A DNA stretch of 27,117 nucleotides from a virus (taxonomy: Duplodnaviria > Heunggongvirae > Uroviricota > Caudoviricetes), in IMG/VR virus record IMGVR_UViG_2693429719_000003. One strand, given 5' to 3'. The first letter of the stretch is position 1. The number at the start of each line of letters is the position of its first letter. The translations under genes were made by a program, and so were the position numbers. This document shows, one piece after another, positions 2,435-10,394 of this stretch. A model generated the notes under the pieces. The model saw only the letters and a program-made list of their open reading frames with translations, was not told the origin of the DNA and searched no databases.

Positions 2435-2752
2435 CACTTCCATTGGTGTTTTGAATTGGTCGATGGGTTTTGTTATGGCTGTCCAATATGAGCGAAGAGC
2501 AGATTGTGTGGTTCAATACAGAATCACGATCCTTTATTAAGATAAGATTCAGCGATAAAGAAGGTTTTTATATTTTAATTTATAAGAAGAATTTTTGTTG
2601 TGCGCCTATACAAATAATTAATTTTATAGTAATGAGTTTCTCAATGACTTATCAAAGTGAAAATCATTCTGGAATGAGGCTAAAAGCGACGCGGAATTAA
2701 AAAAGCTTTCATCTTTGAAATATTGAAGTATTTCCCTCTCTATATCACTAGA

Positions 2753-2778
2753 CTGACAATAACTAAAGAGCTATAATG
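2753..2778 (+). promoter_or_regulatory. candidate promoter for cargo ORF B (consensus -10 TATAAT)
   Basis: Perfect TATAAT at 2773-2778, 32 nt upstream of the ATG; only a weak -35-like CTGACA at 2753-2758 with a short spacer. Confidence 0.3.
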
Positions 2779-2809
2779 CAATTATTTCAAATTATTAAAG
2801 GGTGGGGGT

Positions 2810-4045
2810 ATGAATAGCACGTTAAAAGAACTTGAGAGAAATTGCGCGCCAATAGATTTTATTGACCCATTGGCTCGATTGGTCTTAGATGATTTAGCTA
2901 TGTGGGCAAATGATAATATATACTCAAAACAATCTGGGTGTTTAACTTATGAATTGCCTCTTGATGGAAACATCAATGCAGCGTGTATAAGTTATCATGA
3001 CTCACGCTATCGAACCCATATTAAAATAAACCTGGGAATGGTTCAGGAAATCTACATCCAGTCATTTACCTATCCAGGTTACATTAAATATCTAGAAAGT
3101 GGAAATTGGCATTTCAACGCTCTTGATGAACCCTTTAGTGATGCTGAATTTTTATTCGAAGGTGGCATCCCTCCAAGAGTTAACGCGTCTGACACGGTCA
3201 CTCATATGGTAGAGCTATACAAAAGCATTCCTAACAACAGCAATACCATGTGGACTGATGAAGAATTAATTTGCCGTTTTGCCATGTTCGAATTAATGAT
3301 TGCGTGGATATTTTTTCATGAACTTGCGCATCACGTACAAGGGCACTACAAGATCAAAGGTGAAATAAAAGAATCGGCTACTTATTACGAATTAGATTAC
3401 TCAAGCAACATTAATAATTCCAATCCTGAGGTAACTCCCAGCGTCATCCAAAAGAACATTGACCAGCATGCCCGAGAGATACTTGCAGACCTCGAAGGTA
3501 TGTATTTAACACTCAGAATGATGGTGAGGAATGACACATTAACACCACCTAACACGTTTTTGCTTTTATATGTCCAAACCTCAATGTTTAATGTATTCTA
3601 TAAATTATCTGAGGGAAAGTATGCGGAGTTAGATAGCGTTAAAGTTTCTCACCCCCACCCTGTAATTAGAAACAAATTCGTACACGCCCTGTATGTTTCT
3701 GTGATGAAATGGGAATTGGATAATGATATATACCAAGATTATCGTCACTCTGTTAGCCGAGGTCTTGAATATTATACTGTAAAGTCATCATTGTTAGCTG
3801 GAATGATATGGGCAATGAGACAACCTGATTACAGTCCAGATGTAATGCCCCAATTTCTTAAATTTAGTGATGAGACCGAGCATGCCGCAGATTATAACTA
3901 TCTCAGGGAATTGACCTTAAGCGCTGAAAGGCAATCATCTATCATATCACTCATGCATATCATCGATGATGACTCAGATAATATTTTTAAATTAACAAAA
4001 TTAGACAAGCTATTCACTCATTTTTTAAATGTTAATGAAGAATAA
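2810..4045 (+). CDS. hypothetical 411-aa protein with an HExxH zinc-metallopeptidase motif (FFHELAHHVQGH); cargo gene B
   Basis: Long AT-rich ORF with a G-rich RBS (GGGTGGGGG) directly upstream of the ATG. HELAH at residues 170-174 with further His at 175 and 179 and acidic residues 40-60 aa downstream, resembling ImmA/IrrE (M78)-type or gluzincin motifs. The rest of the protein is unrecognised. Confidence 0.85.
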   Translation: MNSTLKELERNCAPIDFIDPLARLVLDDLAMWANDNIYSKQSGCLTYELPLDGNINAACISYHDSRYRTHIKINLGMVQEIYIQSFTYPGYIKYLESGNWHFNALDEPFSDAEFLFEGGIPPRVNASDTVTHMVELYKSIPNNSNTMWTDEELICRFAMFELMIAWIFFHELAHHVQGHYKIKGEIKESATYYELDYSSNINNSNPEVTPSVIQKNIDQHAREILADLEGMYLTLRMMVRNDTLTPPNTFLLLYVQTSMFNVFYKLSEGKYAELDSVKVSHPHPVIRNKFVHALYVSVMKWELDNDIYQDYRHSVSRGLEYYTVKSSLLAGMIWAMRQPDYSPDVMPQFLKFSDETEHAADYNYLRELTLSAERQSSIISLMHIIDDDSDNIFKLTKLDKLFTHFLNVNEE

Positions 4046-4272
4046 GATACGATGATTAGTGTTCAATTTCACCAGGGATCTGAACACCTGTCATTTGTAC
4101 AGGGCACTGTTACAGTCCTGACAACCCTAGAGTTTAATCAACTCATAGATCTCTAACTCATCACCGACTTAATGTTTATATAGCGGAATGAGCTTTCCAT
4201 GTCAGATATAACAATGTCCGCTTCTGGCACATAGCAGCCCTAGAGACAGTGGCGTAAAGTCATGGAGGACCG

Positions 4273-4298
4273 ATGGGAGGAGGCACAAATCCTCCCAT
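4273..4298. other. perfect 9-bp stem-loop in the B-C intergenic region
   Basis: ATGGGAGGA (4273-4281) / TCCTCCCAT (4290-4298) with an 8-nt loop; it is followed by an A-run rather than a T-run, so it is not a canonical plus-strand terminator. Confidence 0.3.
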
Positions 4299-4417
4299 AC
4301 AAAAAATACGTAAAATCGATAACAGATTGAAATAATTCAATATTCTCACTATCAGAAGCTGACCGGCCAGCCGCAGCACTTTCTTGCAGACGACGAGCCT
4401 GCGGTTTCAACTCCACC

Positions 4418-4581: not shown

Positions 4582-5784
4582 ATGTCTCTTCGTTTCAGAC
4601 AAACCTTTACTCTATTTCCTGGCGTTCGACTCAACATTGGCAAGCGTGGAATAAGTGCAAGCATTGGCGTGCCTGGCGCAACTGTCAATGTTGGTAAAAA
4701 AGGGGTTAGAGCAACTGTCGGATTACCGGGCACAGGCTTATCTTATACTACACCTACCTTGCCCTATGATGATGGATACTCAGTTACCAATCCATTAAAT
4801 CCAGCCCCTACAGAACCTCATTTGGAGTCTGGGTCATCTCCAGAAAACACACCATCGAACGCTAAAATATATATGCCTGTAGCTGGCATGAATGAAATAT
4901 CCAGCGCTTCGGTAGAAGTCCTTACAAGTACCTCCCTTTTACCTTTACGAGATTTGATTGCTAAAGCACGAGAACAAAGAGCAGAGATAAAAGCAGATCT
5001 TCAAGAGGCTCTTGCCGAAGAATCAAAACAAAAAAGCGAGCTGGCTCGACGCAAATCAAGTCTATTCCGTTGGTTTTACAAACGACGCATCGCAGAACTT
5101 GAGACACTACTCCCCCTAACCCAAGCTGAGATATCTCGCCTAGTTTCATGGGAAGACAGCACAAAAATAGCCATAACATTCGAGAGCAGTGATGCTTCAC
5201 AGCGCGCATATGCAGCGATGGTCCATGCATTTGATATGTTAAAATCGAGTGTCAAAAAATGGGATATTACTGCAGATAAAGCTACAGACCAGTTTGCTGA
5301 AAGAACATTAGCAACCCGGTCTGTTAATCGTCACCCAGTTACCTTTGATTTTAGTTCAACGGATCTCATTCAATTTACAGGGCGTGCGATGAGGTTTGAA
5401 AATGTAAATGGAGACGATATTTTGCTTTATCCTGGAGTTGCAGTCATACCACGAGCTGATGGAGCATTCGCTCTGATTGATTTACGCGAATTACAAATTA
5501 GTTCAGAATATCTAAGATTCCATGAGGAAGAAGGTGTTCCCAGTGACTCACGCATAGATGGTTATACATGGGCGAAAACGAATAAGAATGGCTCACCAGA
5601 CCGTCGTTTTAAAGACAACTACCAAATCCCTATTTGCATTTATGGAAATATTACTTTCCATTCTCAAACAGGGGTAACTGAAGAATATATGGTATCAAAT
5701 GCAGATGCCGCGCACGCCTTTGCTGAGGCAGTAAAACGCTATCAGATTTCACTCACAGAAACAGAAGCGTTGGTACAAGCCTGA
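4582..5784 (+). CDS. hypothetical 400-aa protein: DUF4236-like N-terminus, central coiled coil, uncharacterised C-terminal domain; cargo gene C
   Basis: N-terminus RFRQTFTLFPGVRLNIGKRGISASIGVPGATVNVGKKGVRATVGLPGTGLSY matches the DUF4236 motif as I recall it. Residues about 120-175 are Lys/Glu/Ala-rich and heptad-like (coiled coil). The C-terminal 220 aa or so are unknown. Confidence 0.85.
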   Translation: MSLRFRQTFTLFPGVRLNIGKRGISASIGVPGATVNVGKKGVRATVGLPGTGLSYTTPTLPYDDGYSVTNPLNPAPTEPHLESGSSPENTPSNAKIYMPVAGMNEISSASVEVLTSTSLLPLRDLIAKAREQRAEIKADLQEALAEESKQKSELARRKSSLFRWFYKRRIAELETLLPLTQAEISRLVSWEDSTKIAITFESSDASQRAYAAMVHAFDMLKSSVKKWDITADKATDQFAERTLATRSVNRHPVTFDFSSTDLIQFTGRAMRFENVNGDDILLYPGVAVIPRADGAFALIDLRELQISSEYLRFHEEEGVPSDSRIDGYTWAKTNKNGSPDRRFKDNYQIPICIYGNITFHSQTGVTEEYMVSNADAAHAFAEAVKRYQISLTETEALVQA

Positions 5785-5912: not shown

Positions 5913-5992
5913 CGGATAGAACTGTTCAGGCTACTCAATCCTTTTTAAGTACAAATGAACAGATAGAAATAGTTATATTGCAAGGAGCTATC

Positions 5993-6781
5993 ATGCACAC
6001 TGAGTATATATGGCGATACCTTGACATAGAGAAATTCTCTATGTTACTCGAACAAAATGCTTTATTTTTTTGCTCAGCAAAAAATTTTGAAGATCCGTTC
6101 GAAGGTGAATTTGCTTGGGGACATACTGGCTATAAAAAATTCATTGAGACACAGGAAAAACTATGCGCTACTCATGGTGCCGGCATGGACTTAGATCCTT
6201 TCATGGCATTCAATTTAAAGACACTTAAGGAAATAAGCGAGAGGACATATATAAGTTGCTGGCATTGTAACGAACATGAATCTGAAGCTATGTGGAAGCT
6301 GTATTGTAAAAATCCCGCTAAAGGCGTTGTCATAAAATCAAAGAAAAAAAACCTCCAAAGCCAACTTGAAAATAATAATTTAAACAAACTACAATTAAAA
6401 CACGTAAAATACGTAAAAAATTTCTGGATAAAACAATACAATCCAGAATCAGATGTATTCTTTAACAAGAGACCATCTTTCGAATACGAAAAAGAGTTTA
6501 GAGCTATTTTTCAAGAGAATACCTTTAACACTCCACCTGTAAAGGGAAAACTAGTCCCTGTATCTCTTAACAATCTGTTGGAAGAAATAAGGATTTCACC
6601 TTTCGCAGATAAGGATTTCAAAAATGAAGTTTTACAAATTTCAAAAAAATATGGACTAGATCTAAAAGTCAAAAACTCTGAAATTGAAATGCATCCCATC
6701 ATGCATGTTGAGGAAGAAATAATTGCAGAAGGCCCCAATTGGTATCAGTCAAAAATCAGATTGGCAATACGTGATGCTTAA
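5993..6781 (+). CDS. hypothetical 262-aa protein, DUF2971-like N-terminal motif; cargo gene D
   Basis: ATG at 5993 with a consensus AAGGAG Shine-Dalgarno at 5983-5988 (the ORF track's TTG at 5978 is an upstream in-frame extension). N-terminal YIWRYLDIEKFSMLLEQNALFFCSAKNFEDPFEG resembles the DUF2971 signature. Very AT-rich. Confidence 0.8.
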   Translation: MHTEYIWRYLDIEKFSMLLEQNALFFCSAKNFEDPFEGEFAWGHTGYKKFIETQEKLCATHGAGMDLDPFMAFNLKTLKEISERTYISCWHCNEHESEAMWKLYCKNPAKGVVIKSKKKNLQSQLENNNLNKLQLKHVKYVKNFWIKQYNPESDVFFNKRPSFEYEKEFRAIFQENTFNTPPVKGKLVPVSLNNLLEEIRISPFADKDFKNEVLQISKKYGLDLKVKNSEIEMHPIMHVEEEIIAEGPNWYQSKIRLAIRDA

Positions 6782-6884: not shown

Positions 6885-7469
6885 TTACTCCATAACAGGG
6901 ACAGCAGGCCACTCAATATCCGGTGCTACTGATGTATCAACACGGTTCAGCAACACCCGATACTTCTTCCATGCTGCCAGCAACGACGCCTCTTCTTCCG
7001 TTGCGATCTCCAGATCCACAGCATCCTGAAGTGGCGCAATATGCTCATTCGCTGCCTGCATCAGGCTGTTTTTTGTTTCTTCCGCCTCCCGGATCCGGAA
7101 TAGTTTTTCTGCTTCTGCATCTTTCACCCAGGCTGTGCCGTTCCACTTCTGAAACTCCCCTTCCGGGGATAACCAGGTGACATTTTCCGGTAATGAGCCG
7201 AGTTCAGAAATAAATAACGCGTCGCCGGAAGCCACGTCATAAACCGTTTTACCCCGATGATCTTCAACGAGATGCCACGATGCCTCATCACTGTTGAAAA
7301 CAGCCACGAAGCCAGCCGGAATATCTGGCGGTGCAATATAGGTACTGTTTGCTGGCAGACCTGTATGAGGCGGAATATATGCGTCACCTTCACCAATAAA
7401 TTCATTAGTTCCGGCCAGCAGATTATAAATTTTTATGGTCCGTGGTTGTTCACTCATTCTGAATGCCAT
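6885..7469 (-). CDS. tfa: tail fibre assembly protein Tfa
   Basis: 194 aa, matching lambda Tfa as I recall it; its start codon overlaps the stf stop by 1 nt. Confidence 0.95.
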
Positions 7470-10384
7470 TATGCAAGCCTCACAATGTAGTTAAATGCGA
7501 TGTTTTTGACGGTGTTTTCCGCGTTACCAGCAGCGTTAACGGTGATGGTGTGTCCATGTGAGCCAATCGCAACAGAGTGCGTATGAGCACCAATACCGAC
7601 AGTATGTGCGTGAGCACCTGCAGATGCAGCTGTGCCGCTGACACTATGAGTGTGCGCTCCTGCAGCACTTGTATTCACACTGGCCGCAGACACTACCTTA
7701 TGTACTGACCCATTTTGTGACCACTGGCTGACTGCTGATGCGCCTGTGACACTATGAGTATGGTTTCCGGCACTTGCGGCTGTACCGCTCACACTGTGCG
7801 TGTGCGCCCCGGTGTTATTCGTGGATTTAGTGCCGTAATCAAACGACGATGTGGTTTTCGTCCCCAAATCCGTACTGGATGCGCTGGCGCTGTGGGTGTG
7901 CGATTTAATGCCGTCCTGTTCCTGAGACAATACGGCCCGACCACTGGCAGGTTTGCCCTTAATCGTCCAGCCACGCATATCAGGGATCACGCCTGACGGA
8001 TAAGCGGCTGCAAGTTTCGGGTATGCAGATTTGTCAAAAGTCTGCCCCTGCATCAGGGCATAGCCAGACGGAACGGTATCTGATGGCCACGGGATTGGTG
8101 CGCCAGGCGGATAAAACTGCTCTGATGGCGTATAGAGTGAATAAACCGTACCGTCCGTTAACCCTTCCGGCTTATTAGCAGAATATGCTGGTGACGTATG
8201 AATCGTCACGCTGGCATTACTGGTATAATCCCATTGAATATTTACACCAGTCGCATAATTTCCGATTGCAACGTAAATATCGTAAGTATCACCAGATGTA
8301 TTGACCCAGGCAAAATTTGTAAACCCTGTCGATGTGCGCTGCCATAAAGCACCAGTAATCCCCTTCGGATTACCATTACCTGCACGCAAAACAAGTTCAG
8401 ATATACCTGCCTGTTGAGGTGACCCCACGTTAAATCCCGCGCCACCAATCAACGTAATTGAAACAACAGAACTCGCCTGTGGCATGGTTACCGTTGCTAA
8501 TTTGAACCAACCAGCACCACCGCTGAATGACATTGTTGTTGAGTTAAGCGTACCAATATCTTTCGGCGTCAGTGTTATATCCGATGAAAGCGCCTTACCA
8601 TTCACCTTACGGGCAGAAGGTACCCGACCATTCGCATTATCATTAGCTGCTTTCACTGCTTTCGGTGTCGCGGCAAGCGTTTCAGATGCGCTGTTGGTTG
8701 CACTACTGAGCTGGACAATTCCTTTTTGTGCTGTCGTAGCGTCCTGAGCAGTATATTTCCCGTTAGCAAGGTCATAGGCTGCCTTTACCGACTTTGGCGT
8801 TGCCGCCAGCATTTCAGATGTGCTGTTGGTCGCGTTGCTAAGCTGAACTATCCCTTTCTGTGCTGTCGTTGCATCCTGTGCGGTGTATTTCCCGTTAGCC
8901 AGCTCATACGCGGCCTTAACGGCTTTTGGCGTTGCCGCCAGTGACTCGGAAGTGCTGTTAGTCGCACTGCTGAGCTGTACTATCCCCTTTTTCGTCGTGC
9001 TCGCATCCTCAAGCGCCACGGCGGATGCAATATCCTCTGCCCGTTTAGCTGCTGTCTCGGCGCGCGTTGCCGCGGATTCCGCCGTACTTTTGCTCTGAGC
9101 TGCCGCCGTCGCACTGCCAGCTGCCTCTGTCGCCTTCGTGGATGCCGTCGTGGCGCTGCTCTTCGCTGCTGACGCTTGTCTGGTCGCCTCATCTTTTGAA
9201 GCAGACGCAGATGATGCCGATGACGCCGCCGAACTGGCTGACGATGCGGCAGCCGTTTTTGAGGATTCTGCGCTGGTTTCCGACGCTTTCGCGTTCGTTT
9301 CGGATGTCTTCGCTGCGGAAGCAGAACTCGCTGCTGCGCTGGCCTGTTCAGTGGCTTCGCCAGCCTTCGTTGTGGCTGTTGAAGCAGACGATGCGGCACT
9401 TTCTGCCGACTTTCCGGCAGCGGTGGCACTGGCTGAGGCCTGCCCGGCACTTGTTGACGCGGCACTGGCAGATGATGCAGCCGCTGTTTTTGAGCCTGCC
9501 GCAGCTGAGGCACTCTGTGCTGCTGCCGTTTCAGAGGACTTGGCGTTTGTCTCAGACGTCTTTGCCGCCTTCGCGGAATTTCCTGCCGCCGTTGCCGAGG
9601 AAGCTGCACTACTGGCGCTTGATGATGCGTTCGTTTCTGATGATTTTGCCGCCTCTTTTGAAGCCGACGCATCCCTGGCTGAGGTGGCAGCTTCTGACGC
9701 TTTCGTGGTCGCGGTGGATGCAGAAGTGGCGGCTGATTGTTCTGACGCTGCCGCATTCGTTTCTGACGTTTTCGCCGCACCGGCACTGGTAGCCGCCGCG
9801 CTTTTTGAGGACTCTGCAGCGGCAGCACTTTTTGAGGCTTCAGTGGCCTTTGTTGATGCCGTTCCTGCGCTGGAAGACGCTGACTGAGCCGACGACGCGG
9901 CCTGTCCGGCTGACGTGCTGGCTGCACGTGCTGAATCTGCAGCATCAGTCGCACGGGTTGCCGCCTCACTGGCAGATGTGCTGGCATCACTGGCTGACTT
10001 CTTTGCGGCTGCCGTGTTCTGTGCCACCACGGACGCGTTACGCGCCACCTCTTCCACCATCAGTTCAAAACGACGCAGTGCCTCCGGACGGGCATCATCC
10101 TCCGTCATGGCACCGAGAAAATCATTCAGCGTACCGGGTTGAGAATCTTCATACACGGTGATGGTCCCGGCATGTGACGGCGGGAATCCCTTCACCAACA
10201 GAATAACGCTGTACTGACCGTACTCAACGTCCATGCTGTAACGCCCGGCTTCATCCGGATTTTCTGAGGCCAGCGTGTTCACCACCACAGTGGTACTGTT
10301 ACGTTTTGCTTTCAGCTGGATTGTGCAGTTCTGTACCGGTTTTCCTGTGCCGTCTTTCAGTACACCTGAAATCTTTACTGCCAT
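7469..10384 (-). CDS. stf: side tail fibre protein Stf (expanded: long Ala/Ser/Thr-rich region, triplicated 44-aa fibre repeat, His-rich GxHxH C-terminal tip)
   Basis: N- and C-termini match lambda Stf. The true start is the ATG at 10382-10384 ([12 protein letters not shown]...), two codons inside the track ORF. 971 aa versus 774 aa for lambda Stf as I recall it. Confidence 0.93.
8588..8983. repeat. three tandem 132-bp (44-aa) repeats inside stf
   Basis: Protein repeats [41 protein letters not shown] occur three times (residues about 468-599); the DNA is near-identical between copies. Confidence 0.85.
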
Positions 10385-10394
10385 ATTCACCCCA

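Follow-up and report, generated by a model that had tools for sequence, protein, structure and literature searches.

The gene and its product

The window analysed here is the whole 27,117-nucleotide (nt) stretch of virus record IMGVR_UViG_2693429719_000003 (IMG/VR; Caudoviricetes), and our subject is a gene within it that encodes a 411-amino-acid (aa) protein with an HExxH zinc-peptidase motif, for which we consider a role in phage defence akin to that of the Escherichia coli protease Lit. A first-pass annotation, made from the letters alone, had picked out this gene, and it proved to be real: the ATG-started open reading frame (ORF) is intact according to the ORF list and its translation, abundant stops close the corresponding frame of the reverse strand, and the product is conserved.

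2810–4045, + strand: predicted soluble metallopeptidase gene, 411 aa (ORF, translation, substitution rates, identity to the E. coli SC418 copy)

The protein has a mass of 47.8 kDa and a pI of 5.05 and is soluble by prediction, with no transmembrane segment or signal-like N-terminus predicted; its hydropathy peaks at 1.4 (19-residue span), at the active-site helix described below. A copy that is 100% identical is encoded by E. coli SC418, a strain from sediment, where it is annotated 'hypothetical protein'. Measured against the orthologues of Enterobacter (89% identical) and Serratia (80% identical), the ratio of nonsynonymous to synonymous substitution rates (dN/dS) is 0.18–0.26, with a minimum of 0.10–0.15 at residues 151–300, the catalytic third, and a maximum of 0.28–0.45 at residues 301–411. 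Since these ratios show purifying selection, 2810–4045 is a functional coding gene.

Distribution of the family

Carriage within E. coli is confined to SC418, one of 5,426 complete genomes, and a megablast search of the gene region against 50,697 phage records returned nothing but an 83-base-pair (bp) flank. A word-indexed search of 5.8 billion proteins yielded eight clusters, from Enterobacter, Leclercia, Serratia and Sodalis and from two metagenomic groups (43% and 32% identity). Exhaustive searching of 1.84 billion cluster representatives with a hidden Markov model (HMM) gave 118 matches, about 45 of them full-length (~400 aa); the rest, at 340–390 aa, share residues ~155–300. With a profile of the family core, 15 loci were located in 100,044 species-representative genomes, spread over Zeta-, Gamma- and Betaproteobacteria and Campylobacterota (Campylobacteraceae, Arcobacter, Sulfuricurvum), and six loci carrying relatives were found among 2.9 million IMG/VR contigs. 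The family is rare and so far unnamed; no paper describing it was found in an incomplete literature search, which does not prove that none exists.

These counts argue against an M48- or M13-type housekeeping or quality-control peptidase that happens to lie near a prophage. Such an enzyme would be expected at a fixed chromosomal location and with vertical inheritance, and we found neither. The gene's low GC content and its movement as a cassette (see below) point the same way, as do the lack of the signal peptide or anchor of the E. coli M48 peptidases and the hhalign probabilities of 2–17% that the family reaches against them (HtpX 1.9%, BepA 17%, YcaL 4.8%; 13–20 columns, covering the HExxH helix only). 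We regard the housekeeping explanation as largely refuted and very improbable.

Conserved motifs and predicted fold

The motif reads HELAH (residues 170–174, nt 3317–3331) and lies within FFHELAHHVQGH (nt 3311–3346, residues 168–179); the first-pass annotation had placed this string one residue too far along, at 169–180, while numbering H170, E171 and H174 correctly. An HExxH would be expected by chance 0.04 times in a protein of equal composition. A stronger argument than this rarity is the conservation of its residues down to 14% identity, as seen in an alignment of 98 homologues that, apart from the 89% orthologue, are 14–42% identical to the query. In this alignment H170, E171, H174, E223, A226 and D227 are invariant, as is no other column, and A57, Q177, H179, F263, H281, P282, P284 and R287 are conserved in at least 90% of the sequences. 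With the alignment restricted to the core family (32 sequences), A57, P121, H281, P282, P284 and R287 join the invariant columns, and conservation of N56 reaches at least 90%. The HExxH had been described as a lone motif; it is one of four linked motifs, comprising an N-A pair on a strand, HExxHxxQxH, ExxAD and HPHPxxR, the last being an instance of HPxxxxR. The earlier suggestion that an acidic residue 40–60 aa downstream could supply the third zinc ligand is borne out by the candidate E223, which lies 49 residues past H174 within ExxAD, a motif found in all full-length matches.

In M13, M48 and related gluzincins, ExxAD provides the third zinc ligand and an Asp that orients a His. Thermolysin and neprilysin use an N-A pair, located on the edge strand of the cleft, to bind the backbone of the substrate, and the transition state is stabilised by a His together with an Arg six positions further on (H711/R717 in neprilysin; HPxxxxR in M48). 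Judged by sequence, the set of NA, HExxH, ExxAD and HPxxxxR corresponds to that of thermolysin-type gluzincins, with N56-A57 presumably equivalent to thermolysin N112-A113 and neprilysin N542-A543. A catalytically dead scaffold that retains HExxH for structural reasons would fit a fold that Foldseek does not recognise; against it, invariance across 98 diverged sequences coincides exactly with the catalytic and zinc-binding residues, and dN/dS is minimal in the catalytic third, which makes this explanation extremely improbable.

AlphaFold, given eight sequences, returned a model with a predicted local distance difference test score (pLDDT) of 69.7 and a predicted template modelling score (pTM) of 0.80. 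With the 32-sequence core alignment these scores were 86.5 and 0.91, and the five models, at pLDDT 85–86.5, shared one topology, which agrees with that of the first model. The chain is modelled as an N-terminal helix, a three-stranded sheet (44–48, 57–62, 65–73), a helix at 75–97, the active-site helix at 150–176, a disordered loop at ~186–205, a helix at 210–240 that bears E223–D227, and more helices up to the C-terminus. The model thereby contains the elements of a zincin fold, namely a mixed β-sheet with an edge strand, a backing helix and an active-site helix, and it places HExxH on helix 150–176 and the putative Glu ligand E223 on the next helix, 210–240, as in the gluzincins (clan MA(E)). 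As predicted, the whole protein is one compact, divergent gluzincin-like catalytic domain, with N- and C-terminal regions that belong to it and are not separate modules. The flanks of the motif had been called unrecognisable. This description still holds for Pfam and PDB sequence searches, which were blank, and for Foldseek, which gave no significant match, but not for the regions themselves, in which the model shows an N-terminal β-sheet with N56-A57 and, C-terminally, the ExxAD helix and HPxxxxR, all within the single domain.

2975–2980, + strand: codons of N56-A57, candidate substrate-backbone-binding 'NA' motif on the cleft edge strand (strand 57–62 in both models; conserved)
3317–3331, + strand: HELAH, with H170 and H174 as putative zinc ligands and E171 as putative catalytic base (C-terminal half of helix 150–176, pLDDT 95–99; invariant)
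3350–3436, + strand: variable low-confidence loop between HExxH and ExxAD, residues ~181–209 (pLDDT below 50 at 186–189 and 196–205)
3476–3490, + strand: EILAD, with E223 as candidate third zinc ligand and D227 as candidate His-orienting Asp (helix 210–240; invariant)
3650–3670, + strand: HPHPVIR (H281 to R287), the HPxxxxR of M48 and Lit; candidate transition-state or latency His plus Arg
3710–4042, + strand: C-terminal helical part, residues ~301–411 (helices 312–337 and 359–382), with no counterpart in Lit; candidate sensor or regulatory surface

The loop at ~181–209 has the lowest conservation of all segments, with insertions and deletions among family members and gaps in the alignment with Lit. 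Conservation is also lower in residues ~301–411, the region of higher dN/dS (0.28–0.45).

Relation to Lit and other peptidase families

Searches of Pfam, NCBIfam, PHROGs and PADLOC with the single protein returned only two short matches to Lit and a weak match of the N-terminus to PHROG 12795 (function unknown); PDB sequence searches, with either the single protein or the 98-sequence profile, returned nothing at E ≤ 10. The two Lit matches (PADLOC, E 6.5e-4 over 21 residues; NCBIfam, E 0.0039) fall at equivalent profile positions, and Lit is the sole model of the defence library or of NCBIfam that the protein touches. Using hhalign, the 98-sequence profile aligned with Lit alone at 89.9% probability (E 1.7e-6) over 135 columns, from the β-sheet to the ExxAD helix, and with a 26-sequence profile of the Lit family at 95.5% (E 1.5e-8) over 99 columns, with HExxH, ExxAD and HPxxxxR in register. 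Lit of E. coli carries HEISH (160–164), a further His after four residues, ExxAD and THPAAYER. Within the Lit family H160, E161, H164, H169, E181, A184, D185, P233 and R238 are invariant and H232 is at least 90% conserved, and hhalign aligns those positions with H170, E171, H174, H179, E223, A226, D227, H281 and R287.

Weak Peptidase_U49 matches occur in 19 of the 98 relatives and weak M48 matches in 13. By the Lit matches and profile alignments Lit/U49 is the nearest described family, and M48 comes next by these faint Pfam signals and the motifs in common. The protein itself has no PF01435 match and falls short of the M48 gathering threshold, the best value among the 13 relatives being E 9.8e-5. 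The architecture of M13 enzymes (~650 aa, PF05649 plus PF01431) is not that of the 411-aa protein; Pfam and PDB sequence searches detected no similarity to M13 or thermolysin-type enzymes, and Foldseek matches were non-significant. An M78-type or gluzincin peptidase had been proposed at first: the gluzincin assignment fits the model, and the nearest family appears to be Lit/U49 and not M78. ImmA/IrrE (M78, PF06114) gave no match for the protein and a faint one (E 0.049) in one of the 98 relatives.

An HExxH protein on an enterobacterial prophage could also be a toxin or virulence protease that is secreted or injected, either NleC/NleD-like or serving interbacterial competition. The comparison with NleC/NleD-type effectors that had been recommended at the outset came to nothing: M85 and M91 are absent from the Pfam matches of the protein (E ≤ 1) and from the 21 families matched by its relatives, and neither the protein nor the 97 relatives match an effector family in Pfam. 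Moreover, the protein has no signal sequence, genes for secretion systems, immunity proteins or chaperones are not conserved alongside, and there are relatives in free-living Proteobacteria of marine and soil habitats. We consider a secreted effector, like the dead scaffold, extremely improbable.

A one-gene mobile cassette

Comparison of the window with other copies by blastn delimited a segment of ~1.7 kb that moves with the gene.

2481–4221, + strand: mobile one-gene cassette (~1.7 kb), common to the window and the Enterobacter prophage copy (88%; blastn of the window)
2749–2777, + strand: promoter-like TAGACT-17-TATAAT, then a G-rich Shine-Dalgarno-like AAGGGTGGGGGT (33 nt before the ATG; consensus scan 10/12)
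4052–4094, + strand: imperfect hairpin just past the stop codon that may end the transcript (14-nt inverted repeat with 79% complementarity)
1875–2384, + strand: 169-aa ORF with GTG start, upstream of the cassette, encoding RNNLFH (R-x4-H, a HEPN-type motif)

The copy in a Serratia island shares 2649–4053 (84%; blastn of the window). What is shared comprises the gene, ~160–330 bp upstream and up to 175 bp downstream, beyond which the flanks are entirely different in E. coli, Enterobacter and Serratia. All-against-all BLAST of the neighbours at 13 loci and tblastn of the window's neighbours at 49 loci revealed no conserved partner gene, and the window's own neighbour genes recur only in the SC418 copy of this prophage. 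The gene thus travels as a single-gene cassette among three different mobile-element slots in three genera. The promoter-like site is the best of its region and falls within the shared, mobile segment; sites of this kind do not exceed their frequency in shuffled sequence. The hairpin past the stop codon has no T-run and did not register in a terminator scan.

Just beyond the cassette edge, the 87 bp at 4214–4300 are 98.9% identical in ~275 complete E. coli genomes, where they are unannotated, and hold a perfect 9-nt inverted repeat (4273–4281 / 4290–4298). They may be a conserved lambdoid b-region or recombination-junction sequence.

The 169-aa ORF raises the question of a two-gene system, in which the protease would activate an RNase or the pair would form a toxin–antitoxin module. 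The two ORFs lie on the same strand, 426 bp apart, and the upstream product carries the Rx4H motif and weakly matches PADLOC PD-T4-5 (E 2e-4), besides PHROG 27260 (E 3.4e-8, function unknown); it has no Pfam match. The 169-aa ORF, however, lies outside the co-moving DNA and is missing at all other loci, including those of the 89% and 80% copies. SC418 has it in frameshifted form (annotated at 112 aa) alongside an intact protease gene, which speaks against a system that needs both genes, and a hairpin formed by a perfect-spaced 16-nt inverted repeat (2404–2435) lies, together with the promoter-like site, between the two genes. A two-gene system is thus highly unlikely, and the 169-aa ORF may be a small gene for defence or a toxin in its own right.

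Genomic contexts of the relatives

The Enterobacter copy occupies a slot in a Rac-like prophage that has a lambda P-like gene on one side and the nin/Q region on the other. On its contig (L028, 11885–15405), opposite-strand cargo genes of 288, 319 (faint SIR2_2) and 317 aa (weak LprI) stand beside the 89% copy; all are inserted in the interval from the lambda P-like gene to the DinI/nin region, a second cargo hotspot. The Serratia island (L036) contains a P4-type primase, a cluster with a TerB/BrxC-like ATPase and DEAD-helicase, an AAA_11/12 helicase and an NaeI restriction–modification (RM) system with Vsr, and another Serratia contig contains a type I RM system. The homologue with 43% identity begins 35 bp behind a tyrosine integrase.

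A survey of five genes to either side at 11 of the loci located with the core profile found two integrases, one resolvase and, three genes away from one relative (L017), the Gabija gene GajB. Matches to Pycsar-type cyclase and TIR models and to PDC-M19 were also found, which we did not assign to particular loci. Of two distant relatives, that at L027 (895–1821) is preceded, after a gap of 55 bp, by a TIR-like gene (ThsB-like, E 4e-7), and that at L024 (27–1256) directly by the gene of an AAA_21 ATPase (Ppl/AriA/AbiL-like, E 7e-15). The shorter family branch (340–390 aa) may work in two-gene systems.

These contexts also bear on the possibility that the protease serves its mobile element otherwise than in defence, either by cleaving a repressor or regulator, as in ImmA/IrrE-like control of induction, or by acting in counter-defence. 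Carriage by prophages and viral contigs would suit such a role, given that cargo slots house varied morons, and the HExxH…ExxA(D/N)-type signature is common to ImmA-like enzymes, to which the faint M78 match adds. Set against this, no XRE-type gene, as the first-pass annotation had rightly remarked, and no other HTH gene flanks the target in the window, and no neighbour, XRE/HTH or other, is conserved at other loci; M78 is detected in a single relative, and the nearest family is Lit rather than ImmA. Non-phage islands with RM and helicase systems and TIR-like or ATPase neighbours fit host immunity better. On balance a non-defence role is unlikely.

The surrounding prophage

The window represents the right-hand end of a lambdoid prophage that is integrated at icd.

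1–405: ycgX
578–825, − strand: duplicated icd 3′ fragment (ORF 667–819) that marks the end of the prophage, with 81.5% identity to the icd/e14 junction of K-12
1312–1658, − strand: insertion sequence remnant between the attachment site and the cargo, in which two overlapping short ORFs represent a frameshifted, truncated transposase pseudogene (SC418 annotation)
4582–5784, + strand: DUF4236 protein, 400 aa (N-terminal domain E 3e-21; PHROG 17982, full-length E 3e-194, function unknown)
5978–6781, + strand: DUF2971 protein, TTG start, 267 aa (246 aa in the RefSeq annotation of SC418; PADLOC and PHROG matches)
7469–10390, − strand: 973-aa side tail fibre with a repetitive Ala/Ser/Thr-rich central region (GC ~60%, recurring 27-letter units)

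The icd fragment at the prophage end indicates that this lambdoid prophage shares its attachment site with e14, the element that encodes Lit. Compared with SC418, the window is without ~820 bp between ycgX and the icd fragment, where SC418 has ymgK and iraM.

Four + strand cargo genes, namely the 169-aa ORF, the target and the DUF4236 and DUF2971 genes, occupy the slot between tfa and the icd attachment site, which in lambda holds ea47, ea31 and ea59. They are followed on the − strand by tfa, the 973-aa tail fibre gene, lom, J and the remaining tail and head genes, and GC content is 32–43% in the cargo region vs 47–62% in the tail genes. Long spurious ORFs in other frames overlap the side tail fibre gene. 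The DUF4236 protein has no PADLOC match and is unrelated to lambda Ea47. Four PADLOC models of PDC-S31, a single-gene defence candidate, match the DUF2971 protein (best E 1.3e-20), as does PHROG 34615 (E 6.9e-29), and the DUF2971 gene is, as judged from these matches, a second candidate defence gene within the cargo region. The target had been described as a protease in a prophage defence slot, which would be unusual. The cargo or defence slot stands; a protease in such a position has a precedent, since e14 encodes Lit.

Proposed function

Going by its motifs and their conservation, the protein is very probably an active zinc endopeptidase. Zinc would be bound by H170, H174 and E223, with E171 activating a water molecule and D227 orienting a His ligand; H281 and R287 of HPxxxxR would stabilise the transition state or gate activity, while N56-A57 on the edge strand would hold the substrate backbone.

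Lit, encoded by the cryptic E. coli prophage e14, excludes phage T4. To our knowledge, Lit is the textbook example of a cell-killing defence protease and stands almost alone of its kind. By analogy, the 411-aa enzyme would be latent in the lysogen. A product of an infecting phage, or a complex of phage and host proteins, would render an essential host or phage protein cleavable, and its cleavage would halt the infected cell or phage development, protecting the clone and the resident prophage. We speculate that recognition of the trigger is likeliest at the loop 181–209 and the variable C-terminal helices. A phage-triggered, Lit-like role in abortive infection is plausible for the protease, with the arguments evenly poised. 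Taken together, the best explanation we can offer, to which we would attach neither more nor less than middling confidence, is that of a cytoplasmic single-domain zinc metalloendopeptidase acting as a latent Lit-like defence protease on a mobile cassette.

Several observations weigh against this explanation, the first group of which concerns Lit itself. The protein scores 16.4 bits against NCBIfam Lit (PRK09672) vs a curated cutoff of 274; a single-protein Pfam search returned nothing at E ≤ 1, and hence no PF10463; and no defence model of PADLOC-DB v2.0 matched beyond the 21-residue Lit stretch. Homology to Lit is confined to ~100–135 aligned columns near the active site, and the link is remote, because the core-family profile alone reaches only 57% hhalign probability. 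Foldseek gave no significant match against PDB or BFVD, the top BFVD matches (E 0.08–0.6, non-significant) being, suggestively, to a 'Peptidase' without further name and to a phage protein labelled 'M48 domain'. The second group concerns the contexts: many neighbours at the distant loci are ordinary metabolic or housekeeping genes, and a PADLOC match is absent for seven of the ten immediate neighbours tested. The defence association is repeated across loci and suggestive; it is anecdotal, its enrichment not quantified. Carriage by a prophage fits other phage-serving functions equally well.

Sequence comparison places the protein in a separate family within the Lit/M48-like branch of the gluzincins, and by curated thresholds it is no member of U49. 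It is quite possible, though rather less likely than not, that the protein founds a new family of suicide proteases, each encoded by one gene and triggered by phage, which are related to Lit, have acquired a variable loop and additional C-terminal helices, and respond to another cue, attack a target other than EF-Tu, or both. If true, 'proteolytic abortive infection' would widen from Lit, known from the 1980s, to a broader class of mobile immune proteases. A second family with a Lit-like catalytic core and fast-evolving extras would let silencing and infection sensing be compared, and a compact one-gene candidate (~1.7 kb including the promoter-like site) would be added to the prophage defence genes. 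Around 100 'hypothetical' protein clusters lacking a Pfam, NCBIfam or PADLOC assignment would gain an annotation.

Comparison with known systems

Among the systems with which the 411-aa protein can be compared, lambda Ea47 resembles it in position and size. A relation had been thought possible, and the b-region protein (410 aa) does share the slot beyond tfa, the strand opposite to the tail genes and a near-equal length; the resemblance ends there, since alignment gave a best BLASTP E of 0.29 and an hhalign probability of 0.1%, and we consider the two unrelated. The M13 enzymes neprilysin, PepO and ZMP1 differ in being 600–700 aa long, two-domain and mostly extracytoplasmic.

The ImmA/IrrE proteases (M78, COG2856), which include CapP of the CBASS defence systems, resemble the protein as soluble HExxH gluzincins of mobile elements and defence loci. 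They are paired with XRE repressors and activated by a stress or phage cue. The M48 peptidases (HtpX, BepA/YfgC, YcaL, Ste24; PF01435) are defined by the trio of HExxH, ExxAD and HPxxxxR, which the 411-aa protein shares. In contrast to them, it has no membrane anchor, signal peptide or tetratricopeptide repeat (TPR) domain, and M48 peptidases are conserved housekeeping genes, not mobile cassettes.

Lit (MEROPS U49; PF10463; NF007238) is, like the 411-aa protein, a soluble HExxH protein encoded by a single gene on an E. coli prophage; both prophages use the icd attachment site, and HExxHxxxxH, ExxAD and HPxxxxR follow in a common, alignable order. The differences lie outside this core. Lit has 297 aa vs 411, and its spacer between HExxH and ExxAD is ~16 aa vs 48 here, the ~30 extra residues including the disordered loop. 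The 411-aa protein has ~110 additional C-terminal residues, its N-terminal half can barely be aligned, and pairwise similarity spans 21 residues only. Lit is activated by the Gol peptide of the T4 major capsid protein bound to EF-Tu, and cleaves EF-Tu (PMC9712102). By analogy, the regions that are extra or variable relative to Lit suggest that the 411-aa protein would respond to a different trigger.

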